Origin: a virus
Lineage: Duplodnaviria; Heunggongvirae; Uroviricota; Caudoviricetes
Length of the DNA stretch: 61,429 bases
Reading direction: 5' to 3' (one strand)
Virus record (IMG/VR): IMGVR_UViG_3300029305_004950
Coordinates: 1-61,429 of that record
Of this stretch, positions 590 through 34,791 are shown one piece after another (the stretch's first letter is position 1; every line of letters begins with the position of its first letter). The position numbers and the translations under genes were made by a program. The notes beneath the pieces are model-generated. The model saw only the letters and a list, made by a program, of their open reading frames with translations. It was not told where the DNA came from and did not search any database.

Positions 590-2023
590 GTGATAAAAAT
601 GGTTTTAGATAATCTAGTTAATGAATCCTATGAATACTTATTAGAGTATCAAAATACTCTATATGAATTAGATATGAAGATGATCAAGTGTGAACATGCT
701 TGTATTGTTAATGAAGATAGTAATATGATGATGCTAGCTGAAGAAGAATATAAAAATAAAGTACAGGCCACTTTAAAAGCTATTTGGAATAAGATTGTAA
801 TTACTATTGAAAGATTTATTATTGAAATCAGAAAATTTATCAATAATATCAAAACAAAATTCCTACTTAAAAAAGATATTAAGGAAAAGTTACAGAAAAT
901 AACAAAGTTATACAATACTGATGGTACATCATTTGATGTTGAAACTAAATTTAAAAATAAGAAATATGAAGATGGTTATAGTGACGGTCACCAAGATGTT
1001 TCTAAACTAAATACTGGTAAGTTAAGACTTACTGAATGGGATATTGACGTTATTCTAAATAATAATGCTTATGATACAGAAATTAGAAAAGTATTTGGTG
1101 AATTAACCAGTGGTGATAATGAAGCTGCTAAAAAAGCTTTAGAAATGTTTGATTCATTTAAACCTAATAAAACACCTGATTCTGGAGATGCTATCTTCTA
1201 TCGTACTAAAGGTTTTTCTAAGCTAATCATTAATGCATATGAAACTATGCAAAAAGCTCCTGAATGGATTAGACTATTAGAAAAATGCAGAAATGATGCT
1301 AAACAAAAAGCTCGTTTAATTGGTAGTGAAGATGTTAAATCTACTGCAGATGCTACTTACTATCAACGTACCATCAATAAAGGTATTATGCATATTCAGA
1401 AAATTATGAATGCTAGCTTTAAGATTCTATATACTCTTGAAAAAATTGACTTTACTGATAATACAGAAAAAGTAAAGAGAGAAAAAGAAATGAAAGAATA
1501 TACTAGAAAACAAAAAGAAGCTATGGATAATTTAAGAAAAACAAAAGAAGATTTTAGTAAAAAAAGTCAGGCTAGACATGATGAATTAAATAAAGTATTA
1601 GAACGTTTAAAAGATGTTAATAATGAAGATATTAAGAAACAACAAGAAAAAAATAGTAAAGATTTAGATGATTTATTAGGAAAAATTAATAAGAAAAAAG
1701 GCAATGAAGATATTAAGAAACAACAAGAAAAAAATAGTAAAGATTTAGATGATTTATTAGGAGAACTTAATAAGAAAGAAGATAAAGAATCTAAAGGAAT
1801 TCAAAAGAAATTTAAAGAAAAATATGGATCATTTGAAAAATTTAAAAATAGCATTGTAAACACATATCTAGATGATGACATTGCAGCTGATTTAGATGAA
1901 GCAAAAGATGCAAAACGTAAAGCTATTAGAAGAGTAAATCTTTATAAAGAAGTATTAACTGATGAACAGTATAAAGAATTAATCGATATGGTTAAATCTT
2001 TTAAATACGCTGTAGAGGAATAA
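590..2023 (+). CDS. probable virion (internal head) protein, coiled-coil, with internal duplication
   Basis: 477 aa; AACA-N6-TA at 536-547; Glu-rich N-terminus with LxE-like sites. Confidence 0.5.
   Translation: MIKMVLDNLVNESYEYLLEYQNTLYELDMKMIKCEHACIVNEDSNMMMLAEEEYKNKVQATLKAIWNKIVITIERFIIEIRKFINNIKTKFLLKKDIKEKLQKITKLYNTDGTSFDVETKFKNKKYEDGYSDGHQDVSKLNTGKLRLTEWDIDVILNNNAYDTEIRKVFGELTSGDNEAAKKALEMFDSFKPNKTPDSGDAIFYRTKGFSKLIINAYETMQKAPEWIRLLEKCRNDAKQKARLIGSEDVKSTADATYYQRTINKGIMHIQKIMNASFKILYTLEKIDFTDNTEKVKREKEMKEYTRKQKEAMDNLRKTKEDFSKKSQARHDELNKVLERLKDVNNEDIKKQQEKNSKDLDDLLGKINKKKGNEDIKKQQEKNSKDLDDLLGELNKKEDKESKGIQKKFKEKYGSFEKFKNSIVNTYLDDDIAADLDEAKDAKRKAIRRVNLYKEVLTDEQYKELIDMVKSFKYAVEE
1622..1762 (+). 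repeat. 60-nt exact intragenic direct repeat (1622-1681 and 1703-1762)
   Basis: Encodes NEDIKKQQEKNSKDLDDLLG twice, period 81 nt. Confidence 0.9.
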
Positions 2024-2027
2024 TTTT

Positions 2028-2059
2028 TAGAGGAATATCCAATTAAGGATATTCCTCTA
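2028..2059. terminator. hairpin terminator between convergent genes
   Basis: tagaggaatatcc-aattaa-ggatattcctcta, perfect 13-bp stem. Confidence 0.7.
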
Positions 2060-2062
2060 CTT

Positions 2063-2452
2063 TCATTTATTCTTTTCCCATAGATCATGTCCTATAGAAC
2101 CAAATCTATCAATCTTATTCAATTCTTCTATTTGACTTAACATAGTATAAGTTCCTATTTTTCCACCACCATCTATTTTCTTTCTCAAGTCCAAATAAGC
2201 AGATTCTTCAATCATGTCATTAGCTAAACCATTATAGCTACTAGCTTTACTAGCTCTAACTCTAGCTGAATTAGTATTAGCTTCTTTTAAGTTATGAGCC
2301 ATTCTAACCATACTAGATTTTCTATCGGCTGGTGCTTTACCATTTACTGGCATCTGGAATCTAGATAAGTTAGTACCATAAGCTAATGCATATCTACCAA
2401 CTAAGTAAGAGAAGAGACTATCGTCATGTCCTCCAAGAGAGTGACCGATTTT
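2063..2452 (-). CDS. terL: terminase large subunit, exon 3
   Basis: Splicing gives ...LERDNKG|KIGHSLGGHDDSLFSY, with the HDD motif of the RNase H-like nuclease domain; in frame after intron removal. Confidence 0.85.
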   Translation of the reverse strand, partial: KIGHSLGGHDDSLFSYLVGRYALAYGTNLSRFQMPVNGKAPADRKSSMVRMAHNLKEANTNSARVRASKASSYNGLANDMIEESAYLDLRKKIDGGGKIGTYTMLSQIEELNKIDRFGSIGHDLWEKNK

Positions 2453-2704
2453 CTTTATCTTGTCTTGACATTTGTAAGATGTCATGCACTATGTAACCAT
2501 AGTGACCGAGACTATATCTTTGTTTATTACTTATGTAATAAACATTTTCTATTTCCATTATACTCATAATGTACTATTTTAGTCGTTGAACTATTAAAAA
2601 CGTATTTTTAAGCTTTTTATTTATATATTATAACTATAGTAAAGAAGATAAAGAGATTGAAATTATCTTCAAAAAATTTTAAACATAAAAAGGAGCTTGT
2701 TATT

Positions 2705-2974
2705 ATGATTACTGTTATCGCTGGTATTACTGCAAAGGTCGTTATTGGAACTATTCTCAAGACTGTTGGTACTGGTATCCTTTTCGGTGCTAGCACATAT
2801 GCTGGTGTCAAGGGATCTGACAAGGTTGTTAAGACCTTTAAGGCAAAGAAAGCTGCAAAGGAAACCGTTGAAACTGAGAATGTCGAAGATACTACCGAAT
2901 CCACCAAGGAAGATGAAGTAACTGAGAATACTGAAAATACTGCTGAAACTGCAAATAATGCAAAAGAAGCATAA
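2705..2974 (+). CDS. small protein (89 aa) with hydrophobic Gly-rich N-terminus and acidic tail, encoded antisense inside intron 2
   Basis: AAGGAG Shine-Dalgarno before ATG 2705; early-type promoter at 2622-2631; own terminator; codon usage like the highly expressed genes in this window. Confidence 0.75.
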   Translation: MITVIAGITAKVVIGTILKTVGTGILFGASTYAGVKGSDKVVKTFKAKKAAKETVETENVEDTTESTKEDEVTENTENTAETANNAKEA

Positions 2975-2982
2975 TCAATCAT

Positions 2983-3019
2983 AAAAAGAGACTTATTCTA
3001 TATGAGTCTCTTTTTTTTT
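2983..3019 (+). terminator. intrinsic terminator of the intron-borne antisense gene
   Basis: aaaaagagacttat/atgagtctc stem with a U.G pair on the + strand, followed by 9 T. Confidence 0.8.
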
Positions 3020-3108
3020 ACATACGTTTTTAATAGCTGCTGATTTTCTTATATAAGATATAAGAACTTCCAGCAATTAAGAAAATTTATAAAAGAGCAA
3101 AATTTTCT

Positions 3109-4117
3109 ACCCTTATTGTCTCGTTCTAATCCCTTTATATCTGAATAAAGGTTAGGAGTTGCTAATTTCTCAGGATTTTCATTAACCATATCATTCAAGA
3201 TTTCTAGCATTAAGTCACGAGAACCACTACCAGAAGAATTACTAGTAGTACTTACACCATAAATCTGAACTTTTTCTTTTTTACTAACATGAACTATTTC
3301 AGTTTTAGATTTTTCTATCTTAGTACCTTTACGATCCTTATACTCATAGTATAAGTTTCTAGCTATAGGTGTTTTCATTAAAGCTTGTAATATAGCAATA
3401 CCAATAGAGTTATTTTCTATTACTACCATAGAATTTCTGAAATAGAAACCAACTAATTTAACAAGTAGATTCTTAAAGTCATCAGTGTTTATCTTATTTT
3501 CTCTGAATTCACCTATAACTTCAAATGTCATAGGATGGAAAATAGTAATTGCTGATGCGTCTTGTGATAAACCAGTACCAACGTCACAGGATATTATCCA
3601 AGGTTTATCATAATCTATATCCGTAGTATAAAGATCGATTTTCCAGAATTTGTCTATAGGTATCATAGCTACTGGCTCTTTAAGGTGTTTTTCAATTGCA
3701 ACTAATTGTTCTTCTGAGAATACTGAAACATCAGATGCCTTAGTCCATTCTAGTAGAATCTCACGTTTAATTTTCAATAGGTCATTATTCAATGCACGAC
3801 AGTTTTCTCTGTACCATGCTTCATCTCTACCTAATTGTTTGTAAGAAAATTCTATATAGAGGAAGTCATTATCGGATTTCTTATCTAGACATTCCTGAAC
3901 TTCTTCTACAGTCCAGTCATACATACACTCATCAAAGCGACAAGCTTTTTCTACCATTTCAGACTTACACCAAGTTCCTTCAGCTTCAGGATTGTTATCT
4001 ATATTGTTAGGGGTTGTAATAATGGTAGCTCCATAGAAAGAACCATTTTTTCTAGCTTCAACTCTAGCCTGAGACTGTGCAGGTGCAGCTGCTTGGAAAA
4101 CTATTTTGTTGTACTTT
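3109..4117 (-). CDS. terL: terminase large subunit, exon 2
   Basis: KYNKIVFQAAAPA...IITTPN coupling motif and ISCDVGTG nuclease motif; continuous with ORF 3049-3957. Confidence 0.88.
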
Positions 4118-5333
4118 CATTCATATTTGTATAGATTCGTTACATCTATAATTAACTAGATATTTCTATCTAGATTAGACTATATCAAAACCATTATTAT
4201 AGGTTTTTCTTATTTCCATTACACTTGTAATGTACGTAATAGTCGTTAAACTAATTTTCTTTTAATTCTTCTTCCAATATCCTTTCTAAAGAATCAAATT
4301 CTGTATATGGAATTCGTATTAATCTAATTTCATTATTTCTACAATATTCATTCTTAATTTGATCATGTTTCTGAATAGTTTTAAATTTTTTCTCAACTTT
4401 TTCTTTATCTTTACAACCAAAATCTATTGGTTTATAATGTTGAATACCATCATATTCAATACAAATATTTAAATTTGGTAAAAAGAAATCAAATGGTAAA
4501 GTATGTTTATCTCTACAATCTTCAAATCTTTTTTCTGCTATGAAGTTAAATGAGTTTTCTGTTAACCAATTACGAATTTTATCTTCTGCTTTACTAGAAA
4601 ATAAACAGTTACATCTATCTCCATTAATGAATCTATTTGCTATAATAGGATATTCAGCTCCGCATAAAACATGTTTAACAGTTATAGGTTCTTTTATCTT
4701 TGTGTATTCTGATAAAAGTTCATATTCTCCTTTACTAATCTTTTCAAATTCTTTTCTAAATTCTTTAGGATCAGTAGTTTTATTTTTTCGTCTACTTATC
4801 TCGGAACATTTTGGACATCTAGTTCCTATAGTTCTGCCAGATGCAGGATATATAAAATTTGAAGGAGTACATTCAAATTCTTCACCACATGTATTATGTC
4901 TCATTTCAATATCTCTATGTTCATTAATGTAATCTCCGATAACAGTATATTCATCACCAGTTAATTCAAATACTTTATTTTCAAAATCTTCTTGTGTATT
5001 ACTTCTATTAATAATTCTGTTAATGGCTCCACATTTTGGACAATTAGCTTTATGGCGTTTAAAGTCATTAGCATCAGGAGCATCATATACATTACCACAA
5101 ATTTTATGTTTAACTTTTATTGATTCATGACATTTTGTATATTCACCAAGAACTTCATATTCCTCTTTAAGAGAATCATCAAGACTTGAAATATACCATT
5201 CAGTTGTATATTTTCCCATAGTTTAAAATGAAATTAGAATTAAAAGAAAAATTTAGCTGTTGATTATCTATATAGAATTTCCAACAATTAAAGAAATTTT
5301 GATACGATATTTCTACCGTAAAACCCTAAGCCA
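4118..5333 (-). ncRNA. group I intron 1 of terL (1216 nt) with a homing endonuclease ORF in P6a
   Basis: P1 CCU|UGGCUUAGGG; P AAUUGUUGGAAA and Q AAUCAACAGC (compensatory change relative to the other introns); R UUUAACGACUA; S UGAUAUAGUCUA; terminal G at 4118; splice gives WDEFAFL-KYN. Confidence 0.9.
4251..5219 (-). CDS. intron-encoded putative homing endonuclease (Zn-ribbon repeats plus Vsr/DUF559-like nuclease domain)
   Basis: Three H-x-x-CG...C repeats followed by LPFDF...IEYDGIQHY; lies within intron 1. Confidence 0.8.
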   Translation of the reverse strand: MGKYTTEWYISSLDDSLKEEYEVLGEYTKCHESIKVKHKICGNVYDAPDANDFKRHKANCPKCGAINRIINRSNTQEDFENKVFELTGDEYTVIGDYINEHRDIEMRHNTCGEEFECTPSNFIYPASGRTIGTRCPKCSEISRRKNKTTDPKEFRKEFEKISKGEYELLSEYTKIKEPITVKHVLCGAEYPIIANRFINGDRCNCLFSSKAEDKIRNWLTENSFNFIAEKRFEDCRDKHTLPFDFFLPNLNICIEYDGIQHYKPIDFGCKDKEKVEKKFKTIQKHDQIKNEYCRNNEIRLIRIPYTEFDSLERILEEELKEN

Positions 5334-6007
5334 AGGAATGCAAACTCGTCCCACATTACTAATGGTGCAGTGAGACCACGACCACGTTTATCTGACTCAC
5401 TAGCTGATGTAGCTGAAGATAATGCACGAATAGTATTACCAGTAGCAGTATTGGTTATATACTCTAGATTATCTACATCTCGTTTATCTCTAGTTTTTAA
5501 GTAAGATGGTAAGTTCTCATCTATAGACTTAATGATTTTTAGGTTATTCTTACTACCACCAAAGTCTTTATGCATGAATAGGATATTTGAGTTCAATGTA
5601 CCAAATCTATAAAACCATTCAAACATACATAAAGATGATACGGTTTTACCATGCTGACGAGGTAGTAGTGATATAGAGTTGAAGTTGTTAACCATACACC
5701 AAGTAATAGCAAGATTACCACGATGCAATTCGTATCTTTTTTTACCACCAGCGACATCAAGGATAACAACTTCTCTTAAGAAATACCAAGGGTTACGTCT
5801 AATTTCAGCTAAAATACGTATTTTCTGTTCTTTAGTTAAGTTAGCTTCATCTCTAGGATTTACACCTTGTAAGGTCTTATCATAAAGTTTTAGGAAGAAT
5901 TTGTTATTCTTTATACCTAAAGCTTTCAGGATTTTATACATTCGTTTAAAAGATTTGTTATCAGTTTGAGCATCTATGATATAGGAATTATTTGAAGTAG
6001 TATTCAT
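5334..6007 (-). CDS. terL: terminase large subunit, exon 1 (spliced product 690 aa)
   Basis: Walker A LPRQHGKT, Walker B VMWDEFAF; exons 674+1009+390 nt = 691 codons; late promoter at 6049-6060. Confidence 0.9.
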
Positions 6008-7702: not shown

Positions 7703-8152
7703 TTAGTACTTTATACTATCTATAATCATTTCCTTAACCTTATCTGAAATTTCCTTATTTCTAAATACATTGCACCAATTCAAATACCATTTGTATTTGA
7801 CTAAGAATTTTCTAGATAATTTTTGATAGTATGAAACCATATCCCAATCAATGTAATCAATAAACTCAATTATGAAACTTTGACTGAGAGTTTGTTTCAT
7901 ACATAAATCATGCCAATCTAGTTGATCGTAATGCTTTCTTATTGTATCTTCTGAAAGTACCTGTGTTGAAGATATGAGTTGAAAGTCTAAATACTCAGCA
8001 AATTCGTCTATGAATTTGCTGCTTAGTTTTTGATGTATTTGTATATCCTTCCAGTACTCTTTACGATTCCACCATGTTTCGTATTTAGTCTGATAGTTAC
8101 TTGTGTAATTATAGTTTTGTAGACTTTGTATTTCTGTTTCAGTTAGTCTCAT
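7703..8152 (-). CDS. Trp-repeat family protein (array A, gene 7)
   Basis: Regular LS-x-x-FI...(L/I)DW repeats. Confidence 0.8.
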   Translation of the reverse strand: MRLTETEIQSLQNYNYTSNYQTKYETWWNRKEYWKDIQIHQKLSSKFIDEFAEYLDFQLISSTQVLSEDTIRKHYDQLDWHDLCMKQTLSQSFIIEFIDYIDWDMVSYYQKLSRKFLVKYKWYLNWCNVFRNKEISDKVKEMIIDSIKY

Positions 8153-8720
8153 TTAACGCCTCCTCTATATGATTTTGTAGATATTTTATTAGCTTAAGTT
8201 TAGTTTTCTTACTAAAATTGGAATTATTAAAGCAGTTCTTCAGATCTATATAATCTTTCATTTCAATTAAAAAGTCCTCTGTAAATCTATATGTTTTGCA
8301 TAAACGTTTCCAATTTAGTTTATCTTTATAATTTCTAACAAAATCATCATTATTTCTTATTACATTTGATATTTGATCCCAACAATTTTTAGTCATATAT
8401 GACTCATATCGTTCAGCTATACTTACGATAGTTTCTCTAGACATCAAATGGCTAATACGATGATTATTACTTACTATATACATCCAAGCATTATTTGTCA
8501 AACAATCTTTATATAAATCTATAAACTCAAAGATTTTATCTAAATTATCTTTAAAGAAACAGTTCATTTCTATTGAAAATTCTTCCAGAAAGAGATGGTC
8601 ATCTTTTAAAATATCATCAATAGAAATATGGTTAATGACTTTTTTAAATTCTGAAGAAAACATTGGCTTATAAACCATCTCTAGATTAAACTTCTGTATT
8701 TTAGTTAGTTCTTTACTCAT
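8139..8720 (-). CDS. Trp-repeat family protein (array A, gene 6)
   Basis: LTKIQKFNLEMVYK N-terminus; YKDKLNW...EMKDYID. Confidence 0.8.
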   Translation of the reverse strand: MSKELTKIQKFNLEMVYKPMFSSEFKKVINHISIDDILKDDHLFLEEFSIEMNCFFKDNLDKIFEFIDLYKDCLTNNAWMYIVSNNHRISHLMSRETIVSIAERYESYMTKNCWDQISNVIRNNDDFVRNYKDKLNWKRLCKTYRFTEDFLIEMKDYIDLKNCFNNSNFSKKTKLKLIKYLQNHIEEALNETN

Positions 8721-9295
8721 AGTTTCTCTCCTAACTTATCATTTCTATAGTCATTAATAAAGTCATTTAGATGAGTTTCCATAAATGTCCTTATAAAGCT
8801 ATAAATCTTATGTCTTTTATCTATATTCTTTAGTATAACATCCATATCTATATAGTCTTTCATTTCATACAAGAATTCTGGTGTAAAGTCGTGATAACCA
8901 GAAATTAGAACCCAATCTAGTTTATCTTTGTATTTTCTAATAAATTCTTCATTACTATGGAAAAAGTAATTATGACAAAGCCTCTCCCAACATCTTGTTT
9001 CTAAATCAAATTGGTCGTGGAACATATCTGCAAAGCGTACAGGATCTTGATTAATAAAAGCATGAGCTACATTTGTTACACGATACCAATTTATAAAATC
9101 TTCATAATCAACTAAGAATGTATAAGTAGCATCTAAATCATTCTTATAGATTTCATCTATAAAATCTACAAACTTATTGATAAAAGCTTTATCATCTTTA
9201 AAACTAGATAATTCAATACTAGATACTGTAGAGAATAATGGTTTATAGATTAACTCTAAATCAAACTTTTCCTGTTTAGATAACTTCTTTTTCAT
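8717..9295 (-). CDS. Trp-repeat family protein (array A, gene 5)
   Basis: LSKQEKFDLELIYK; YKDKLDW...EMKDYID. Confidence 0.8.
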   Translation of the reverse strand: MKKKLSKQEKFDLELIYKPLFSTVSSIELSSFKDDKAFINKFVDFIDEIYKNDLDATYTFLVDYEDFINWYRVTNVAHAFINQDPVRFADMFHDQFDLETRCWERLCHNYFFHSNEEFIRKYKDKLDWVLISGYHDFTPEFLYEMKDYIDMDVILKNIDKRHKIYSFIRTFMETHLNDFINDYRNDKLGEKL

Positions 9296-9899
9296 GGTTA
9301 ACTATCTCCTCACTTTTACTAGAAGGATCATATGTAAGTACTTCTTCTTCATGATCAAAGAAATACTTAAGAATCTGATCACCTAGTTTTGATCTAATAC
9401 GAAACGTAGAATTTCTATTAAACACTTTAGTTTTAAGGATTTTTAGATTTATATAATCTTTCATCTCTAAATAGAACTCAGGAGAAAAGTCATGACATTC
9501 AGAAATAGAATCCCAGTTTATTTTATCTTTATACTTTCTAATAAGTTTCTCATTCCTACAAAAATATGGATGCTTGCTTAGACAATCCCAACATTTTTTG
9601 TCAAAGTATTTATTGTACTTATTAACAATTGTAGTTAGGTTATTATTCACGGTAGTATTCCAATAAGAAACACCAAATACTCTTTGCCAATTTATGACAT
9701 TTTTATAGTCACTTAAGAATTTCAATATAACAGTTCTATTACCATAAAAAACTCTATCTAAATTTTCTGTTATGACATCCAAAGCTTTAAAAGTTAGAGT
9801 ATTGATATTTGTAAAACTTGTCTCAGTACTAGGTATTTTACTCTTATAAATCATCTCCCAATCAAATAACTGTTTCTTAGTAAATTCTCTTTTAGCCAT
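9276..9899 (-). CDS. Trp-repeat family protein (array A, gene 4)
   Basis: FTKKQLFDWEMIYK; YKDKINW...EMKDYIN. Confidence 0.8.
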   Translation of the reverse strand: MAKREFTKKQLFDWEMIYKSKIPSTETSFTNINTLTFKALDVITENLDRVFYGNRTVILKFLSDYKNVINWQRVFGVSYWNTTVNNNLTTIVNKYNKYFDKKCWDCLSKHPYFCRNEKLIRKYKDKINWDSISECHDFSPEFYLEMKDYINLKILKTKVFNRNSTFRIRSKLGDQILKYFFDHEEEVLTYDPSSKSEEIVNHEKEVI

Positions 9900-10488
9900 T
9901 TACATTTTCCTCTCGTTTATACTTTATCACTGTTTCTAAATTTTCTTCAACATACGTTACCATTTGGCTTTTGAAATCACCATCATTTTCATATATCAGT
10001 TTATAGATATCTAAATAGTCTCTCATTTCTAAAATGAAATCTAAACTGAAATTAAAGAATGAATAATCAACAATTTGACTCCAATCTATAACATCTTTAT
10101 ATTTTTTAAGAAATCCTTCAACTTCATCTTGTTTAATACTATGATACCTACCAGAAACCAATAACTCATTTAAGATAAAACTCCAACATTCATTATCCAA
10201 GTATTTATTTGAAATTTCAATTGTTTTATCTAGATTTTTACAAACCCAATAAGTATTTTTCCTAAGAAATCTACGCCAGTTTATTAAGTCTTTATAATCC
10301 TCTAAAAATTCAGGTATATGAATAACATCTGTAAAAGCATATACTACATCATAAACTATATCGTTTATCATATGTACAGTTAATCCATCACCAAACATGT
10401 ATTCATTGGTTATGTATTCTTCTAATAGGTGTCTATACTTTAATTCAAAATTGAAAACATGTTGTTTAGTAACTTTCGTTTCATTCAT
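9892..10488 (-). CDS. Trp-repeat family protein (array A, gene 3)
   Basis: VTKQHVFNFELKYR; YKDVIDW...EMRDYLD. Confidence 0.8.
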   Translation of the reverse strand: MNETKVTKQHVFNFELKYRHLLEEYITNEYMFGDGLTVHMINDIVYDVVYAFTDVIHIPEFLEDYKDLINWRRFLRKNTYWVCKNLDKTIEISNKYLDNECWSFILNELLVSGRYHSIKQDEVEGFLKKYKDVIDWSQIVDYSFFNFSLDFILEMRDYLDIYKLIYENDGDFKSQMVTYVEENLETVIKYKREENVNG

Positions 10489-11056
10489 TATCAGTTTCCT
10501 CTTTATTTCCAGTATATGTTAACACTTCTTCTAAATGGTCTACAGTATACTTTAACATCTGCTGACTTATAACACTACCGTTATGATAACGTATTTTAGA
10601 AATTACTTCTTTTATCTGTCTTTTAGTCATTCTGTCTTTTAAAAAGAGTAATAATTTTGGAGAAAATTCATGTTTTGTTATAATCGTTTGAATATCTAGT
10701 CTATCAATATATTTCATGATAAATTTTTCATTGTTGTATACACTAAACATACCATGAATATGACTCCAACCCTTATCACCGATGTATTTTTCATACTTAT
10801 TGACAAATTTGTAAAGATGCTCATTTACAAAATACCAATTTTGATAGATAAATCTATCAAAATCTATAAGTTCCATGTAGTCATCTATAAATTCAGTAAC
10901 TAGGTTATAATCACTCTGAAAGCTATAATGAAGATTTTTATATATAAGAGTATCAAAATTTCTTAAAGTAAGTTTGTCAAATTTCTGTTCCTTTACTTTA
11001 TCTTTATATTTCATCTCCCAATCGAATAGATGTTTTTTAGTTAGAGTTCTCCTCAT
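10481..11056 (-). CDS. Trp-repeat family protein (array A, gene 2)
   Basis: LTKKHLFDWEMKYK; C-terminal HLEEVLTY. Confidence 0.8.
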   Translation of the reverse strand: MRRTLTKKHLFDWEMKYKDKVKEQKFDKLTLRNFDTLIYKNLHYSFQSDYNLVTEFIDDYMELIDFDRFIYQNWYFVNEHLYKFVNKYEKYIGDKGWSHIHGMFSVYNNEKFIMKYIDRLDIQTIITKHEFSPKLLLFLKDRMTKRQIKEVISKIRYHNGSVISQQMLKYTVDHLEEVLTYTGNKEETDNE

Positions 11057-11651
11057 TAGTGTTATCCTTTCTATTATAAGATAAAATTTCTTCTATATGA
11101 TTTAAACAATAGTTCTTTATATGTTTAGCAAACTTTTTAGGTTTTTCTTCATGTCTATCAATTCTATCTAACATAATATCAAATCTTATATAGTCTTTTA
11201 ATTCAAAAAGTAAATCTATATCAAAATCAATATCATTACGCTGTTGTGATATGTACCGCCAGTCTAAGTTATCCTTATATTTTTTATAAAATTCATCTGT
11301 AGTTTCATCGTTACAAAGAATAGATATACAATACCAATGGTATTCATCAAAGTTTTTATTGAATTTATCCACGAATAGTTCTAAATTTGTTTCGATAAAA
11401 GCTCTTTCTGAATATATTAGTTGCTTCCAATCTATAATGTCCTGATAATCTTCTATGAATTCTAAAATAGTAGATCCATTGTATTTGAAGTTATGTGATA
11501 GATCTCTTGTGATTAACTTAAAAATATCTTCATTCAATTTAGTACGTTCAGTTATTGTAAAAACATGATTATGACATCCTATTAATAAGTGTTTGTATTT
11601 CAACTCAAAATCAAACATATGTTTTTTTGTTAACTTTATCGTATTTTCCAT
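11037..11651 (-). CDS. Trp-repeat family protein (array A, gene 1)
   Basis: LTKKHMFDFELKYK; early-type promoter at about 11681-11692. Confidence 0.8.
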   Translation of the reverse strand: MENTIKLTKKHMFDFELKYKHLLIGCHNHVFTITERTKLNEDIFKLITRDLSHNFKYNGSTILEFIEDYQDIIDWKQLIYSERAFIETNLELFVDKFNKNFDEYHWYCISILCNDETTDEFYKKYKDNLDWRYISQQRNDIDFDIDLLFELKDYIRFDIMLDRIDRHEEKPKKFAKHIKNYCLNHIEEILSYNRKDNTNEENSN

Positions 11652-16219: not shown

Positions 16220-18796
16220 TTATGTTTTGTCTGACAAAACATAACTCTTTTTTGCAACTTTTTGCATGAACCTATTACGAATTTTACTATGATTTCGGCA
16301 TTGTTTAAAACCATTATCTGTTAATTGAATGAAGTACTTTTTTACTCCTTCTTTATATCTAAGTCTACCAGAAAGTTGTTCCATTAATACTGCTGATGAA
16401 ACACTAACTGTATTGATCACTATACATAGATCATCTACATCTACGCCTTTACCAAAACCTTTTAAAGTAGTAAGGATTAATTGATTATCTAATTCTTTAT
16501 CTCTTTCAGATTTTGCAACTAAACCACAAAATCTTCCTACTTTAATCTTTCTCGCTTTTTTTGTTTCATTATTGATAAAGATAGATTTAGAAAAATCATC
16601 ATATAGTTTTTCAATCATGTTGTTACAATTTACAACTATAGCTATTTTCTGTTCAGGATCTTTATTCCATAAGTCATTTAAAAGTTGTTTTAACATTTTG
16701 AAGTACTTATCATATTTTTTATTTAGTAGATAGTCATTATAACGATTACTATCAAATCCATGTGCATTAGACATATTGAGTTCTTCATAGTCAGTAGGGT
16801 GTGTATTCCATAAATACTCAATATACCTAATATACTTTTCATTTCTAGATTCAGTTAAACCAAATGTAACAACACCATCGAATAAACGACTATATACTTC
16901 TTGTTCATTGTAATTACTTCTAGCAGGGGTTGCCGTTAGATAGATAGTATTTTTAACATCAGTATTGATATCAATGTAGAAAATGTTTCTCCATTCAACA
17001 TGTGCTTCGTCAAAAATCTTATCACCAATACCTATTTTCTGGAATAGGTCATTCAATAATTCCCAATTACCATCACAATAAGAATCTAATGTTCTATGAC
17101 TAGCTAGGTATACTTTATATGGATTATTAGTCTGTCTCATTAGTTTCTTTATAGTAGCACTGCCAGAAATTGTAAACATTTCATCATCTTCAATGTTTGT
17201 AAATTTCTTAAAAGATTCTTTCCATTGGTTTAAAATCTTATCATTATCAACTATAATAATTGGAATTCGTCCAGACTTAGTTACATAGTTTATGGCTGTA
17301 TAGGTATTATGAGTTACAATATAGTTAGAAGTAAGATATAGATGATCTGGATTATCTACTTTAATACAAAGCATTTCTTCTTGATTATCCATTTTTTCAA
17401 CAGAAGTAATAGCTATATAGTCATAATCTCTTCTTTTAATTTCATTTTTGTGTTTTTCAGCAATAGCCACTTTTCTTGGTATAGAAAAAAGTCTAGTCTT
17501 TTTATAATTTGGAATATTAACATGAATTACATAGCATTTATAATCTTTTCTATTTTTTCTAGTATCTTCAGAAATAGTAGCTGATAAACCCAATGAAATT
17601 AAAATTTCTTTTACATCTTCTGCTAATTTTTTAGATATAGTATAATACTTAACATGACATCTTTCATTATCTCCAATATATCCATCGGTATCAAATAATC
17701 CTTGAATTAATTGATAACGTTGTTCAATACTTGCAGTTTTATAGATATCTGGAATGTACTTATTATCAGATTTATATCCAATTAGGCTGAAGTTATCATT
17801 TTCAAAAACGTCTTTAGTTCTAATATATTTATAGTACGTATGACTATCTTCTGAAAATAGCTTTTCTTTCATTTCAAATTTATAACTATAATTAGAATCA
17901 TGGTATTTAAATGGTTTACAATCTAATATATTAGCTACTTTTTCTACAATAAATTCATCTTTTGCACTTAATGTTAATGCTTTTTCAGTAAGACATCCAT
18001 CACCAATAAAACAACCTAAAATATAAGGATCAACGGGTAGAGTTATTTCTGGATATTCAACTTCGCCATTCATAGGAATCCAATGATTATATCTACCTTG
18101 TTTATTAAGAATACCCTTTGACATAATTTCACTAAGAGGAATAGTTTTTTCTTTGATAACTCTTTTCTTAGTATCATTATCAATAGATGCATACTTAACA
18201 GTCCATAGATGATCATCATTACAATATGTTACTCGACCATCACTTAATTCAACCTTATAATTATTCAGTTTTCCTCTTCTAAAAATTCCAGTAACTTCTG
18301 TAGGTTTACCATTTCTATCAAATACATAATCACCTACATTTAAATCACCTAATTTTTTGAAACCATTAGGAGTAGGAATAATAGTGTTAATTGGTTGTGC
18401 TTTCCCATCGCCTGGTTTCAAACATAGGAATTTCTGAGTTTCATTCTTGAATTCAGAAAATTTACCCTTACCTAAGAGATATTCAATACTTTCTTTTTGT
18501 ATATCGCTTCTAGGTTGTACTGTTAGTTTTAGTTTCATGTATTTACAAGGTTTTCCACTTAAATCATATTCTAGTTCATGATTAGGAAAATAGTACATTA
18601 GCTGAGTTAACTTAATACCCTTGTGAATATACATGATTTCATTTTCTTCGTCTTCTTTATAAGCAAACCAACTTATATAGTTTCCACCATTTTTTGTCTT
18701 TTGCCATACAGATAGTTTCTTTTTGAAGTCAACATAATTACCTTTTTTATAATCATGTATTACTATACTAGATGTTAGTATCTGTATTTTATACAC
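16220..18796 (-). CDS. superfamily 2 (UvsW-like DExH) helicase containing an intein
   Basis: Walker A LKPGDGK|T split by the intein; DEAH, LTATP, GKGVDV, EQLSGRLR motifs. Confidence 0.88.
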   Translation of the reverse strand: MYKIQILTSSIVIHDYKKGNYVDFKKKLSVWQKTKNGGNYISWFAYKEDEENEIMYIHKGIKLTQLMYYFPNHELEYDLSGKPCKYMKLKLTVQPRSDIQKESIEYLLGKGKFSEFKNETQKFLCLKPGDGKAQPINTIIPTPNGFKKLGDLNVGDYVFDRNGKPTEVTGIFRRGKLNNYKVELSDGRVTYCNDDHLWTVKYASIDNDTKKRVIKEKTIPLSEIMSKGILNKQGRYNHWIPMNGEVEYPEITLPVDPYILGCFIGDGCLTEKALTLSAKDEFIVEKVANILDCKPFKYHDSNYSYKFEMKEKLFSEDSHTYYKYIRTKDVFENDNFSLIGYKSDNKYIPDIYKTASIEQRYQLIQGLFDTDGYIGDNERCHVKYYTISKKLAEDVKEILISLGLSATISEDTRKNRKDYKCYVIHVNIPNYKKTRLFSIPRKVAIAEKHKNEIKRRDYDYIAITSVEKMDNQEEMLCIKVDNPDHLYLTSNYIVTHNTYTAINYVTKSGRIPIIIVDNDKILNQWKESFKKFTNIEDDEMFTISGSATIKKLMRQTNNPYKVYLASHRTLDSYCDGNWELLNDLFQKIGIGDKIFDEAHVEWRNIFYIDINTDVKNTIYLTATPARSNYNEQEVYSRLFDGVVTFGLTESRNEKYIRYIEYLWNTHPTDYEELNMSNAHGFDSNRYNDYLLNKKYDKYFKMLKQLLNDLWNKDPEQKIAIVVNCNNMIEKLYDDFSKSIFINNETKKARKIKVGRFCGLVAKSERDKELDNQLILTTLKGFGKGVDVDDLCIVINTVSVSSAVLMEQLSGRLRYKEGVKKYFIQLTDNGFKQCRNHSKIRNRFMQKVAKKSYVLSDKT
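17306..18400 (-). mobile_element. class 3 intein (365 aa) with LAGLIDADG homing endonuclease
   Basis: Starts AQP, ends VTHN followed by T; WCT signature (DHLW, MLCIKV, VTHN); LGCFIGDG and IQGLFDTDG motifs. Confidence 0.88.
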
Positions 18797-26105: not shown

Positions 26106-26456
26106 ATGACTAACAAAGAAATTATAAAACGATTTAAGTTTGAATTAGATATAGGAATCTTTAAAACAGTAGATAATCCTGTTGGAGATTGTTTAATATG
26201 GTTTTATCCTGAATTTGATAATAGAAATCTAGTAGATGTTTTAAGAAAATTGGGTTATACAATAAACGTTAGATATATAGATCACGTTATAATAGTTGTA
26301 AATACTAAAACTAAAATAGTTAATGAATTGAAACCATATAGTGATAAACGTTTTAACTATTATGGTAAACAACTAGAATTAGATAAAGATATTAATCCAT
26401 TACCAGATTACATCAATCAATATGATAGAAAGGGGAAATATGTTTCATATGACTAA
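26106..26456 (+). CDS. array B paralog 1 (MTNxxIxKRFxFDL family)
   Basis: MTNKEIIKRFKFELDIG...INPLPDYI. Confidence 0.8.
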   Translation: MTNKEIIKRFKFELDIGIFKTVDNPVGDCLIWFYPEFDNRNLVDVLRKLGYTINVRYIDHVIIVVNTKTKIVNELKPYSDKRFNYYGKQLELDKDINPLPDYINQYDRKGKYVSYD

Positions 26457-26892
26457 TAAACAAATTGAGAAACGATTTCTATTTGATTTAAATACTAGTG
26501 TAAAATATAAATCTAGTCCTATTTTTGAAAATGATAAAGAAAAACCATTTGCTATGGATATTATTGGATATGAAAAAGAGATTATTTTTGAAGTACCTAA
26601 ATACAAAAATAGGAAGAAATTAGTAACTTTATTAAGTCTGTTTAATTATAGTGGTTCTATAGACTATTTTGTAGATGAAGGAGATCAAGATTGCTATTGG
26701 TCTGATAAGGAATTTAATAATAATGACTTTAATAATGAACTTTTTATAAATGATGAGCTGTGTAAAACTATTAAAATCTATCCTGAAAGAGAAAAGTTTT
26801 ATATTCCCTCATGTACATATGGATATGAAAGTCCTTATTATAATCAGCTTCCAAACTATATAGAGGAGTATGAAATTAATAATGACCAATGA
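26449..26892 (+). CDS. array B paralog 2
   Basis: MTNKQIEKRFLFDLN...NQLPNYI; start reassigned to the family motif. Confidence 0.8.
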   Translation: MTNKQIEKRFLFDLNTSVKYKSSPIFENDKEKPFAMDIIGYEKEIIFEVPKYKNRKKLVTLLSLFNYSGSIDYFVDEGDQDCYWSDKEFNNNDFNNELFINDELCKTIKIYPEREKFYIPSCTYGYESPYYNQLPNYIEEYEINNDQ

Positions 26893-27235
26893 ACAGATTG
26901 AAAAACGATTTGAATTTGATTTAGCAATGGGAGTTTTTAAACCTGCATATGAAGGTGATCCTAATATAATAAGCTTTGAATGTAAGAATATACATAACTT
27001 TAAGAAAAGACTTAAGTTCTTTGTAGTATTAAAGAAATTAGGTTTTACTCTAATGAAAGGAAAAGGAATTCCTCGTGTATCAAATATCGTAATTCATATT
27101 TCTTTAGAAACTAAGCAAATTGATACACGTTATAGTTTTAGTTATTATCCATATAGTTATGAATGTATTAATGAAATTCCTAGTTACATAAAGGGATACT
27201 CTTTAGAGAATATAAAAACGAAAGGAATGTTCTAA
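26882..27235 (+). CDS. array B paralog 3
   Basis: MTNEQIEKRFEFDLAMG...INEIPSYI. Confidence 0.8.
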   Translation: MTNEQIEKRFEFDLAMGVFKPAYEGDPNIISFECKNIHNFKKRLKFFVVLKKLGFTLMKGKGIPRVSNIVIHISLETKQIDTRYSFSYYPYSYECINEIPSYIKGYSLENIKTKGMF

Positions 27236-27601
27236 GTGACTAATGAACAAATTGCAAAAAGATTTTTATTTGAATTAAATATGGGAATGTATAGAATTTG
27301 TCGTGATGGACTTATATGTTTTAAATCCAACTATAAAAATCCTAGAAAATACATAATCAAACTAACAAAATTACTAAAGGATTATTCAGAATATGTGGAA
27401 TTTTTACCACCAGAAATAGAAGAACATTATAAAACATATAGTAATTATATCGCTAGTAATAGAGTGCTTATAATCAATACTAATGTAAAAAAATTTCATC
27501 ATGAATCCTATGAACCTTGGTTTACAAGAAATAGAGATAATATAATCCCTGATTACATAGTAAAATACGATCATAGATTGGAGGTTAAAAATAATGACTA
27601 A
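27236..27601 (+). CDS. array B paralog 4
   Basis: GTG start; TNEQIAKRFLFELNMG...NIIPDYI. Confidence 0.8.
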   Translation: MTNEQIAKRFLFELNMGMYRICRDGLICFKSNYKNPRKYIIKLTKLLKDYSEYVEFLPPEIEEHYKTYSNYIASNRVLIINTNVKKFHHESYEPWFTRNRDNIIPDYIVKYDHRLEVKNND

Positions 27602-27929
27602 TCAAGAAATTGAGAAAAGATTTTTGTTTGATTTAGAAATGGGTAGATTTAAACAATATTCTAATTTTGTAATTTTTAGAAATATGTCTTTCTTAGATGA
27701 AGCTGTAATGACAAAATTGCTTAAAAATATTGGTTATAAAAAAGATTATAATCTTTTTATGTATTTTAATAATATGAGTCATCAAGTATCTAGAGGAAAA
27801 ACTACAATTACTATTAATAAGGAATCTAAAATATATCTTGCACCATATACTGTTATGGTTTCTTCTGATGAACATATGGGGTATATTAATGAAATACCTG
27901 ATTATATAATAATGGGGTATAAACTATGA
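27594..27929 (+). CDS. array B paralog 5
   Basis: MTNQEIEKRFLFDLEMG...INEIPDYI. Confidence 0.8.
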   Translation: MTNQEIEKRFLFDLEMGRFKQYSNFVIFRNMSFLDEAVMTKLLKNIGYKKDYNLFMYFNNMSHQVSRGKTTITINKESKIYLAPYTVMVSSDEHMGYINEIPDYIIMGYKL

Positions 27930-28264
27930 CTAATAAAGAAATAGAAAAAAGATTTCTATTTGATTTAGAGATGGGATTATTTAAATCACTTGCTCATGAG
28001 CATTATGGTACTACGTATAACAAAAAAACATACTCGTTTTATAGTAGTACTAATTTAAAGATTTATAACCTATGTGAGTTATTAGATAATATTGGCTATA
28101 AACATAAAAATCCTAGTATATATGAATTAGTACCTAATAAATGTATATCAATTACAGTTTATCCATGTAATAAACGTTATGAAATTGGTTATACTCATAA
28201 ACTCATTATGAATGAAATTCCTGAATATATAAGTAATTACCAATACTATCTTAATAAGGAATAA
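27926..28264 (+). CDS. array B paralog 6
   Basis: MTNKEIEKRFLFDLEMG...MNEIPEYI. Confidence 0.8.
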   Translation: MTNKEIEKRFLFDLEMGLFKSLAHEHYGTTYNKKTYSFYSSTNLKIYNLCELLDNIGYKHKNPSIYELVPNKCISITVYPCNKRYEIGYTHKLIMNEIPEYISNYQYYLNKE

Positions 28265-28270
28265 AGTACT

Positions 28271-28657
28271 ATGACTAATGAGTATATTGAAAAAAGATTT
28301 AACTTTGATCTAGAAATGGGAATGTTTAAAATCATTCAAAAAGAAAATTGTGCTTACTTTGAATGTAAATACAATAGCTATCATAAATGGATAAACAAGT
28401 TTACAAAAGTTCTATTAAAAAATGGATACAAAGAAATTGTAGCTGATGAAAACGAATACAAATGTTTTTATTATAAGTGTTATCAAGATTATAAAAGTTC
28501 ATGTAATATTATTAAGATCTTTATGGAAACTAAGGAATTTAAGCTATATCAAAAATGGAGAGTAAACATGTTTTATAGATATGAAGGAATGATTAATGAA
28601 ATTCCAGAATATGTAGGTTACTATAATCATAAGATTGAGGTTAATAGTAATGACTAA
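28271..28657 (+). CDS. array B paralog 7
   Basis: MTNEYIEKRFNFDLEMG...INEIPEYV. Confidence 0.8.
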   Translation: MTNEYIEKRFNFDLEMGMFKIIQKENCAYFECKYNSYHKWINKFTKVLLKNGYKEIVADENEYKCFYYKCYQDYKSSCNIIKIFMETKEFKLYQKWRVNMFYRYEGMINEIPEYVGYYNHKIEVNSND

Positions 28658-28964
28658 TGAAGAAATTGAAAAAAGATTTTTATTTGATTTAGAAATGGGA
28701 AGATTTGATATCTATACTAATACACAGGGTGTTAGAGAAATAAGATTTATTGTTTCTAGATATCTAATAAGAAAATTTATGACTCTATTAGAAAATCTTA
28801 ACTATTCTTATAAAGAATGGCATAAGTGTTTTATAGATGTTAATGATAGATTGATAAGAATATTTCTAAATTCAAAAAAGTTTTGGATTCAGGATGTAAA
28901 TACTCATGTTAGATATGAATGTCTTAATAGTACACCTAATTATATAAAGGAGTATATGATATGA
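28650..28964 (+). CDS. array B paralog 8
   Basis: MTNEEIEKRFLFDLEMG...LNSTPNYI. Confidence 0.8.
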   Translation: MTNEEIEKRFLFDLEMGRFDIYTNTQGVREIRFIVSRYLIRKFMTLLENLNYSYKEWHKCFIDVNDRLIRIFLNSKKFWIQDVNTHVRYECLNSTPNYIKEYMI

Positions 28965-29335
28965 CTAACGAACAAATTGAGAAAAGATTTCTATTTGATT
29001 TAGAAATGGGTAGATTTAAGAAATATATCTATAATGATTTTGAATCTTATTTATTTAATGGTAATGAAATAGTTAAAATGATAAGAATTTTAAAGAGAAA
29101 TAAATACAAATATAGAGGAGATAAAAAATATAAGAATAATGGTATTGCTAATGTTTTAAAATCTAATAATCTTCTCATACAGATTTATAATTCACGTAAA
29201 GAGTATTTTATTTATAGTATTAGTAGTGTTTTAAAATGTAATTTAGATGATTATATACAATCAATGCCAGATTATATTGAAAATTTTAAATTAACACATT
29301 GGTATGACATAAATCTATATAAATGGGTGCATTAA
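28961..29335 (+). CDS. array B paralog 9
   Basis: MTNEQIEKRFLFDLEMG...IQSMPDYI. Confidence 0.8.
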   Translation: MTNEQIEKRFLFDLEMGRFKKYIYNDFESYLFNGNEIVKMIRILKRNKYKYRGDKKYKNNGIANVLKSNNLLIQIYNSRKEYFIYSISSVLKCNLDDYIQSMPDYIENFKLTHWYDINLYKWVH

Positions 29336-33219: not shown

Positions 33220-34590
33220 ATGTTTTCTTTGAAGATAGATATTTGTAATCTTGAAAAATTCATAAAAGTAAACAATCTTCAAGAAGTAACTAATCCTATT
33301 AGATTTGACCAAGGTTGGTATCCTACCGATGATGGTTTACTATCATATAAGATTTTCGGACAAGTTGGCTCATATGATAGAAAGACTATTTTTGGTTATA
33401 TCGATTTAAAAGGACATTTTTTACATCCTTTATTCTATCAACGTTTATCTAAGATGAATCGAAATTTCATTAGAGTTATAGATGGTTCTGGGTATTTTTC
33501 TATCAATGAAAAAGGTGAACTAGTTGCTGATAATGAGAATGGTAATACTGGTATTGACTGGTTATATGACAATTTCAAGAAATTGAAATTCAAAAAGTCT
33601 GGTAGTGGTGAACGTGATAGAACTATAGACTTGCTTAACACAATGGATATAGATGAGATATTTGTTAAGTATTGGCTTGTAATTCCGGCATATCTAAGAG
33701 ATTCCAATATACAAAAACTAGATCATGGTAAAGTTTCTGAAGATGAGATTAACAAAATGTATGCTAATCTAATTTCTTTAGCTAGTTCTAATAGTGATTT
33801 TGATTTTATGGGTCATGTGACAGAATCAAGACTTCAAAAGCAGTTAGTTGAAATCTATGACTATCTAACTAGCTACATTAAAGGCAAGACTGGATTACTT
33901 AAGAATCACTTACTCGGAAAGACTGTAGACTACTCAACTCGCGGAGTTATATCAGCTGGTCGAGTCAATTCTAACAAACCTGCAGATCAGCTAGTAAAGT
34001 TCACATATACTGGTATTCCTCTATCACATCTATGCAACCTATTCTATCCTTTCTTCCAATATGAGATAGATAACTATATGAGAGAAACATTTGCTTCTGT
34101 AAATAGTATAAAAGCTAATGATGGTAATTACTATGATCTAGTAAATCCAATGTCAAAATTTACTACTGAAAAGATTAAGGGACTATTAAATCTCTACATT
34201 AAATCTCCTGATAATAGATTGGATCCTATAATGGTTCCTATTAGAACAGAAGAAGGAACTGTTAGAGAAATACCTTTAAATCTATTCCAAGATGATTTAA
34301 GAAGAAGATTTACTCTTTTGGATTTAATCTATATAGTTGCAGTTAGAGTATGTCATGATAAACATGTCTATGTAACTCGTTTCCCAATTGAAAATTACCA
34401 AAGTATTTATCCTAGTAGAATCAAGATAATGACTACTTATAAAACTCAACAGATAACAATTGGTAGTAAGTATTATGATGAATATCCTGTAATTACAAAG
34501 GATGTCGATAGTCCTTATATAGATGAAAATCCTAACTATATTGATACCATTATTCCTCATAATACAATGTTGGAAGCCTTGGGAGCGGAT
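33220..34590 (+). CDS. RNA polymerase beta'-like subunit, N-terminal/catalytic part (probably virion RNAP), exon 1
   Basis: DGLLSYKIFG, GYIDL, LLGKTVDYSTRGVI, TRFP, ends EALGAD; late promoter at 33182-33193. Confidence 0.88.
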
Positions 34591-34791
34591 TAACTATCAA
34601 AGTTCGCTATAAAATTCTTTAAATGCTGGAAAAAACCAATTATGGAAAATCAGCAGCTAGTATTAAATGCTAGTTCAACGACTAATTGCACTATATGTAT
34701 GGTGAAAATAAGAATGTAAAAGATATAGTCTCGTCTTTGTATTGAAATACAGAGTATTCTAGATTTAACAAATCTAGATTTAAGAAAATTG
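34591..34791 (+). ncRNA. ORF-less group I intron (201 nt) in the RNAP catalytic motif
   Basis: P1 GCGGAU/GUUCGC with U.G pair; P AAAUGCUGGAAA, Q AAUCAGCAGC, R GUUCAACGACUA, S AAGAUAUAGUCU; terminal G; splice restores GAD-FDGD. Confidence 0.92.

Follow-up and report, generated by a model that had tools for sequence, protein, structure and literature searches.

This work describes a group I intron in the large terminase subunit gene (terL) of a jumbo phage, in which the P6a loop holds the elements of a complete accessory transcription unit on the strand opposite to terL. In the reading that we consider probable, the unit is likely transcribed on its own and spliced out with the intron, and the loop would serve as a swappable gene slot. 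The DNA analyzed (referred to here as the window; 61,429 nucleotides) forms the first part of a virus record that measures 319,626 bases (jumbo phage, ~320 kb; 28.6% G+C). Its terminase is ~40% identical to those of the Bacillus phages BpSp, AR9, and PBS1 and 35% identical to that of phiR1-37, and the genome encodes AR9-like virion and non-virion RNA polymerase (RNAP) subunits. Judged by these genes, the source is an uncultured AR9-like jumbo phage. The genome under study is labeled G000, G001 and G002 are relatives, and the L-numbered loci come from relatives or pattern scans (L054 belongs to G001); positions are those of the window unless a genome or locus is named.

Intron anatomy and the restored terL frame

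The terL gene occupies the minus strand as three exons separated by two introns (Table 1). In silico removal of 5333-4118 and 3108-2453 restores the host frame, as removal of a group I intron should, giving 2,073 nt and 690 aa with zero internal stops. The second junction, DNKG|KIGH, aligns without gaps to L004, a relative with no intron at that site. When this junction was shifted in frame, three positions shared the best score, of which 3109/2452 alone combines a U at the exon end with a G at the intron end. In L002, the 3′ splice site probably lies near 5505 and adds one proline (DNKG-P-KIGH) relative to G000 and L004.

Intron 2 shows the group I hallmarks: an exon-final U opposite a guide G in P1, a P10 pairing, an intron-final G, and the core helices P3, P4, P6, P7, and P8 with the P, Q, R, and S sequences in order. 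The first-pass annotation, made from the sequence alone, had credited the intron with all core elements, and P1, P10, P3, P4, P5, P7, P7.1, P8, P9, and P9.1 indeed all pair as written. Introns of subgroup IA are recognized by one or more extra hairpins between P7 and P3′; here, P7.1 (2571-2556) occupies that place with a pair probability of 0.94. Plain folding returned pair probabilities of 0.00 for P3 and 0.20 for P7, as would be expected for a pseudoknot, which such folding cannot draw. In L002, P5 and P8 are kept despite sequence change.

The check with Infernal group I models that had been suggested alongside that annotation came out in part. Rfam searches of the whole intron, the whole window, and 2000-5600 gave no group I match and missed the RF00028 gathering score, whereas each half of the intron alone matched Intron_gpI (halves 26 and 23 bits, below the gathering score). 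The half-matches are cut exactly at the insert, and an insert-free sister intron scores 34 bits in the group I model; we attribute the whole-element miss to limits of the model together with the insert. An STnc240 match (E 0.007) covered only the terminator hairpin and was dropped.

The two ribozyme halves are joined by a perfect 15-bp inverted repeat (mean pair probability, 0.99) that closes a loop of 416 nt (2606-3021), as first described. It was also correctly noted that intron 1 carries its nuclease at the corresponding position, with the ORF located between Q and R and matching PHROG 559 (E 7e-77). Repeats of 15 bp at a spacing of 300 to 600 nt are not rare (3 in the genome and 0 to 3 in 10 shuffles), but the chance of such a stem in a fixed register between the Q and R elements is about 1e-8. 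Cognate stems measure 11 to 18 bp in 10/10 cassette introns, whereas 90 mismatched arm pairs average 3.1; the 4 mismatched pairs that reach 11 bp are all orthologs.

Table 1. Coordinates of terL, its introns, and the loop unit in the window and of related units elsewhere.
Feature	Position	Strand	Basis or remark
terL exon 1	5334..6007	-	PHROG terminase large subunit, E 4e-65; splice test
terL group I intron 1, 1216 nt	4118..5333	-	P/Q/R/S motifs; ends by splice test
322-aa homing-endonuclease-like ORF on the terL strand, in the intron 1 P6a loop	4251..5219	-	PHROG 559, 9084, 7140
terL exon 2, final base is U of P1 U-G pair	3109..4117	-	40% identity to AR9/BpSp terL
terL group I intron 2 (IA-type; 656 nt), with hairpin P7.1 separating P7 from P3′	2453..3108	-	
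Ribozyme 5′ half	3037..3108	-	Rfam Intron_gpI, E 2e-4
Parts of 5′ half (P10 and P1 form the guide sequence)	P10 3103-3099; P1 3098-3093; P3 5′ 3086-3080; P4/P5 3075-3038	-	
5′ arm of 15-bp P6/P6a stem	3022..3036	-	two bases from cassette terminator U-run
Intrinsic-terminator-like hairpin (2988-3010) and U9 run (3011-3019)	2988..3019	+	
89-aa passenger ORF	2705..2974	+	
Shine-Dalgarno AAGGAG, 9 nt before ATG	2690..2695	+	sequence; kept in L002
Phage promoter motif CGTA-N17-TATATATTAT	2601..2639 (motif 2601-2631)	+	offset count; AR9 analogy
3′ arm of 15-bp stem	2591..2605	-	includes CGTA element of promoter
Ribozyme 3′ half	2453..2590	-	Rfam Intron_gpI, E 4e-5
Parts of 3′ half	P7 2584-2580/2514-2510; P7.1; P3′ 2550-2544; P8; P9; P9.1; terminal G	-	
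terL exon 3	2063..2452	-	splice test
Five-gene opposite-strand operon, virion RNAP beta intron	G000 279,826-281,822		2.0 kb
397-aa Myb-repeat ORF, virion RNAP beta intron	G000 282,372-283,565		
348-aa Myb-repeat ORF, prohead protease intron	G000 238,466-239,512		
ORF-less 236-nt opposite-strand unit, prohead protease intron	G000 240,047-240,291		
Same-strand promoter and U9 terminator, no ORF, loop just before P7	G000 173,812-174,020; also L056 near 4576		
Opposite-strand units without an ORF of at least 40 aa	L001 1825-2136; L134 2657-3034; L014 3047-3257; G000 240 kb		
BpSp introns	L195 3178-3634; L196 5408-5870 and 2255-3720		unannotated
phiR1-37 (AJ972879.2) terL group I-like intron	L192 1852-3809		unannotated; carries g144

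Elsewhere in the window, we observed a short group I intron in an RNA polymerase beta′-like gene (34,559-34,753, plus strand; Rfam E 4e-7) and, on the minus strand, a helicase-like ORF with an apparent intein that has a LAGLIDADG-like region (16,220-18,634; translation read by eye). Two tandem arrays of short paralogous ORFs also lie on the minus strand, one of about nine members starting MTNxEIEKRFLFDLEMG (26,106-29,335) and one of about six with KKQxFDxE starts (7,703-11,651).

The opposite-strand unit in the loop

The loop contains a moron-like unit with its own promoter, ribosome site, ORF, and terminator, whose presence or absence varies among relatives. The promoter motif, the Shine-Dalgarno sequence, the ORF, and the terminator all agree with their first description. 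No IS605-family transposase, which would mark an IStron, was present among the ORFs where the intron has its 3′ end.

The promoter belongs to a CGTA-N17-TATATATT motif, and its upstream CGTA (2601-2604) sits within the helix arm. Across the genome, CGT occurs at offset 21 in 12 of 94 TATATATT sites (0.31 expected), mostly upstream of genes, and the 20-mer that begins at 2622 has identical copies at two intergenic sites. A narrower promoter pattern (10 matches versus 3.6 in shuffles) was judged not to rise above shuffles and was replaced by this offset count. As given in the AR9 transcription data, the early consensus is AAATATATATTAT-(6N)-G, and the AR9 enzyme is strict at upstream positions (PMC5312081). 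The promoter in the loop matches that consensus at 11/13 positions, with A then G at the start position, and by analogy to AR9 transcription is predicted to start at 2638-2639. The two mismatches fall where the AR9 enzyme is reportedly strict (PMC5312081), and the phage has an extended motif of its own, so the early timing implied by the initial designation as an early-type promoter appears likely at most.

The terminator has the polarity that had been claimed for it, with a U9 run and −9.8 kcal/mol on the plus strand compared with U5 and −5.2 on the minus strand. Of the 12 cassette terminators that were folded, 11 have their longer U-run on the cassette strand, and one has runs of equal length.

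The 89-aa passenger protein

The protein consists of a hydrophobic, Gly-rich N-terminal helix, a Lys-rich stretch, and an acidic low-complexity tail, and contains neither Cys nor His. In three members of its family, the 19-residue hydropathy peak lies at the N terminus (1.8 to 2.4) and is followed by a basic stretch and a tail with a net charge of −10 to −16. The family comprises four close members, including a 96-aa ortholog (56%) in the same intron of L002/L003 and two context-free homologs (P0002 and P0004), plus a distant 94-aa look-alike located in another terL intron of L004-L006. Apart from the two without context, every member lies in an intron. A further candidate, P0005, was a low-complexity match and was dropped. 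No paralog is present in the genome, and no relative was found in the bacterial genomes searched. The protein has no Pfam or PHROG family, and all of its atlas matches are at 0.80 or lower.

Compared with the L002 ortholog, codons 2-40 give a dN of 0.21 and a dS of 0.72 (dN/dS of about 0.3), and the whole ORF gives a dN of 0.45 and a dS of 0.94, with the tail alignment unsure; terL exon 2, used as a control, gives a dN of 0.08 and a dS of 0.97. Identity over codons 2-40 is 29/39 in the plus frame versus 19/39 in the antiparallel frame. The overlapping 121-aa minus-strand frame (2982-2617), which has no Shine-Dalgarno sequence and is less conserved, was rejected as a shadow. By these comparisons, the ORF is under purifying selection as a protein, and the gene is a real, lineage-restricted one. 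Its use of AAG for Lys (9/11) is matched or exceeded by 14/323 genes and its GC3 of 0.28 by 13/323; genes matching those values include capsid and HU-like genes, and abundant phage proteins show a similar choice of codons.

The absence of a nuclease motif, noted at the outset, extends beyond the lack of Pfam and PHROG matches: six phage intron nucleases compared to the loop in six frames gave nothing at an E value of <1, and the same nucleases match the intron 1 control. Intron 2 thus contains no ORF with a nuclease domain, the mark of a mobile intron. An AlphaFold model has low confidence (pLDDT 49). The product would most likely be an abundant small host-membrane protein anchored by the N-terminal helix, with a disordered acidic tail. 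A membrane-active or superinfection-exclusion function had been proposed initially. The hydropathy is compatible with a membrane-associated product, and no homology to a superinfection-exclusion family was found in Pfam, PHROG, or the atlas; a role in host-membrane remodelling or phage exclusion is conceivable but on balance unlikely.

The same design in other introns of the genome

Motif scans retrieved 16 group I-like introns in G000, 5 of which carry opposite-strand P6a units. The other 11 comprise one with a same-strand ORF-less unit, two with same-strand P6a nucleases, and eight with short loops. In 5/16 G000 introns, the promoter sits inside the 3′ arm at a distance of 29 to 36 nt, and the 5′ arm has a U6-U11 run on its inner side; the same layout occurs in L001, L002, L022, L054, and L055. 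Cassettes are present in 5/12 introns of virion/morphogenesis genes versus 0/4 of the others, an enrichment that is not significant (P = 0.18) and in which the portal, gyrase, and one RNAP host-gene label are assigned from sequence.

Passengers range from single genes to a five-gene operon (Table 1). Two Myb-like tandem-repeat passengers, located in different genes, are 49% identical; in homologs, the Myb-repeat module is fused to LAGLIDADG in 6/49, and fusions to helicase domains are also seen elsewhere. Units without an ORF of at least 40 aa account for 4/13 of those examined, so protein cargo is not the sole thing kept, and these opposite-strand units are candidate small RNA genes. The same-strand ORF-less unit may likewise represent a small RNA. 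Same-strand units would imply that the late polymerase reads through the terminator or that the intron halves are trans-spliced.

Orthologous sites in relatives

We surveyed P6a contents at orthologous sites, as had been proposed, and found loops that are empty, ORF-less, or occupied by 1, 5, or 11 genes. At the terL DNKG site, G000 and L002 carry the 89/96-aa gene, L001 has its loop empty and a nuclease-like ORF placed in P8, and L004 has no intron. The L001 ORF (3513-4685), which runs through the S element and the 3′ splice site, could mobilize the DNKG site. At the terL KRGR site, there is an ORF-less unit in L001, the 94-aa gene in L004-L006, and no intron in G000. The virion RNAP site (AR9 g264 ortholog) is empty in G000 and G001 and holds a unit in G002. 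The RNAP-beta NSNGG site contains five genes in G000, eleven genes in 5.3 kb in G001 (L054 5922-11223), with one gene in common, and a single gene, gp247, in BpSp. The protease GEAG site holds an ORF-less unit in G000, an empty loop in G001, and gp190 in BpSp.

Free-standing homologs in G000 were found for 2/11 of the G001 passengers. The two Myb-bearing introns are mutual best matches in their 3′ halves (90%; bootstrap, 99) but not in their 5′ halves, and a G001 terminator is nearly identical to that of a neighboring, different G000 intron; we regard the shared 3′ halves and the terminator match as indications that introns have exchanged parts. Resolution in the intron trees is too low to give the number of gains or to choose between one origin and many.

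More distant uncultured phages with the same design in terL are represented by L014, L041, L042, and L134. In a metagenome pattern scan, 5/23 matches were introns with a promoter (L030, L034, L038, L041, and L042); the other 18 lacked an S element or an intron context. L008 and L013, from a separate scan, have short loops and no cassette. In a further scan, 19/127 loci held an intron; most of these were on contigs found before, and a single cassette type (L134/L143) was new.

Cultured relatives

An antisense pattern search of cultured genomes gave no match in AR9, Machias, MarsHill, or phiR1-37 and 2 in BpSp. In the regions of BpSp (KT895374.1) that were read, three introns carry the opposite-strand genes gp190, gp249, and gp247, none of a nuclease family. 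Two of these introns share sites with the G000 protease and RNAP introns, and the gp190 unit has no terminator. An additional opposite-strand gene, gp246, lies between P7 and the S element of the intron that carries gp247.

The terL gene of phiR1-37 is divided into g143 and g145 by a group I-like intron, and the loop of this intron carries the same promoter motif, g144, and a terminator, all on the terL strand. The g144 product (526 aa) has no known family, and a 10-bp stem closes the loop. The g144 promoter is listed as verified by RNA-seq (PMC4848604 Table S2). Its 171,000 to 196,000 reads, compared with 700 to 2,300 for the terL pieces (not length-corrected; PMC4848604), are the highest count among g129-g283 in the supplement, where g144 is classed as constitutive (unregulated in time) rather than early (PMC4848604). 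The word "intron" is absent from the main text of that paper, and neither the BpSp nor the phiR1-37 introns are annotated as such in their records or the papers examined. These passengers resemble the terL unit of G000 in occupying the same loop, with a stem-adjacent promoter motif and non-nuclease products, but they are unrelated to the 89-aa protein, and that of phiR1-37 is on the same strand.

Proposed mechanism and alternative explanations

The first-pass annotation regarded the intron as a neutral landing pad for cargo. This idea is well supported by comparative evidence, namely, the units in 5/16 G000 introns, the variable contents of orthologous sites, and the cultured relatives with the same design. 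In the mechanism that we propose, virion RNA polymerase would make a short, separate RNA from the unit, probably as soon as infection starts, and the late polymerase would later read backwards through it as part of terL. The ribozyme would loop the unit out, and splicing would remove the passenger from the terminase mRNA. The stem would be formed by the upstream flank of the promoter and the downstream flank of the terminator. Loops would tolerate 0.2 to 5.3 kb because they are spliced away and closed by a long stem, and we infer from this tolerance a cost-free slot for ordinary accessory genes. Recombination within the promoter, the terminator, and the intron core, all conserved, likely underlies the swapping of passengers, and with the unit facing backward, the terL pre-mRNA likely escapes both the terminator's strong face and the ribosome sites of the passenger. 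A broader version is tentative and less likely than not: AR9-like jumbo phages may have a genome-wide P6a cassette system in which promoter and terminator flanks coevolve to form the sealing stem; recombination at these flanks captures accessory operons (up to 5 kb), moves them between introns, and flips them; homing of the intron spreads them; and essential late genes provide protected storage for early anti-host genes.

It had also been suggested that the antisense transcript could repress premature terminase expression or splicing. As a timing device, early opposite-strand transcription or an RNase III-cut duplex would restrain terL, and the passenger would be secondary. The host genes fit this idea, in that all five G000 and three BpSp units lie in terminase, prohead-protease, or virion-RNAP genes, and AR9 terL and g189 are reported as late genes (PMC5312081); likewise, the ORF-less units (G000 240 kb, L001, L134, and L014) keep a promoter and terminator. 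The predicted transcript (about 2638-3019) is, however, limited to the loop interior: with its start on the inner side of the 3′ arm and its end short of the 5′ arm, it could not base-pair with exons, splice sites, or the ribozyme core. Same-strand units (G000 174 kb; phiR1-37 g144), the absence of the unit from L001 and of the intron at this site from L004, selection on the ORF as a protein, and a late-gene bias of P = 0.18 add to making a timing role improbable.

A second alternative is that the passengers derive from homing endonucleases once encoded on the opposite strand, or took their place, with a promoter and terminator built for a nuclease gene. Opposite-strand intron nucleases are documented (LittleE gp14; PMC3706429), the intron gene AR9 g190 is served by an early promoter of its own (PMC5312081), and the Myb-repeat module of two sister cassettes has the LAGLIDADG-fused homologs described above, so nuclease ancestry is possible for the Myb passengers. 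It does not apply to the 89-aa ORF, given its lack of Cys, His, and family matches and of any six-frame nuclease trace, and multigene operons with free-standing homologs are not nuclease remnants; as a general explanation, we give it only a slim chance. A nuclease may nonetheless have been the ancestral, first occupant of the loop. A third notion, that of an intron that does not splice and an insert in decay with a silent ORF, could draw on the low-confidence AlphaFold model and the slightly shifted 3′ junction of L002, but would leave the packaging motor encoded in pieces. Given the intact core helices (with P5 and P8 kept through sequence change in L002), a dN below a dS of 0.7 to 0.9, and the retention of ribosome site, promoter, and terminator, we find it very hard to credit. 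Our preferred reading remains the spliced accessory unit in an exchangeable slot. Introns carrying accessory genes and whole operons point to a possible benefit to the phage of keeping introns, and the loops would offer a concealed way to acquire genes within the very genes that it conserves most. For annotation, opposite-strand "hypothetical" genes between terminase, protease, or RNA-polymerase fragments can be intron passengers. With the design present in the cultured phages BpSp and phiR1-37, the size limit of the loop, read-through of the terminator by the late polymerase, and the fitness value of the intron are directly testable.

Comparison with known systems

To our knowledge, phage group I introns have been described as either empty or homing-endonuclease bearing. 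In the T4 td intron, for instance, I-TevI resides in P6a. In group I introns generally, homing endonuclease ORFs are looped out of peripheral helices (PMC3984707). Such introns share the ribozyme class and the loop with the case described here, and terL intron 1 is an example; the passenger of intron 2 differs in having no known mobility and, as predicted from its strand, in not being translated from the intron RNA. Against the premise that intron ORFs are normally sense-strand endonucleases, there is an antisense precedent in mycobacteriophage LittleE, where gp14, a predicted homing endonuclease, lies on the opposite strand in a spliced capsid intron (PMC3706429). LittleE gp14 thus matches our case as an opposite-strand ORF in a late-gene phage group I intron but, as reported there, is a predicted nuclease and a single case with no cassette series. 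The closest parallel in promoter use, from the nearest cultured group, is AR9 g190, an HNH homing endonuclease gene with its own early virion-RNAP promoter in a group I intron of the late gene g189 (PMC5312081; KU878088.1). That gene, as recorded, is a same-strand nuclease, whereas the passenger here is an opposite-strand, exchangeable non-nuclease with its own terminator.

A full-text literature search, together with PMC12880540, PMC10914365, PMC12908238, PMC2504315, PMC11878797, PMC4870245, and bioRxiv 2020.12.14.422802, as far as these sources were covered, did not turn up any phage group I intron described as carrying an opposite-strand transcription unit without a nuclease; single cases may be mentioned in the genome papers of AR9 and phiR1-37, which, like most subscription journals, lie outside this scope, or in those journals. 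Partial parallels exist beyond phage introns. The hexacoral mitochondrial ND5-717 intron also contains unrelated functional genes in a peripheral segment, but it is mitochondrial, uses P8, holds fixed essential genes, and is back-spliced, as described in PMC6545197, whereas the present introns are from phages, use P6a, and hold variable accessory genes. IStrons similarly rely on group I splicing to make extra DNA harmless, but their IS605-family transposon cargo at the 3′ end mobilizes the element (PMC3984707), and none is present here. Finally, morons and the units described for phiKZ share with the terL unit a promoter-gene-terminator arrangement directed against the late cluster and a distinct base composition (PMC10914365); those units are intergenic, whereas the unit here lies inside an intron of an essential gene.
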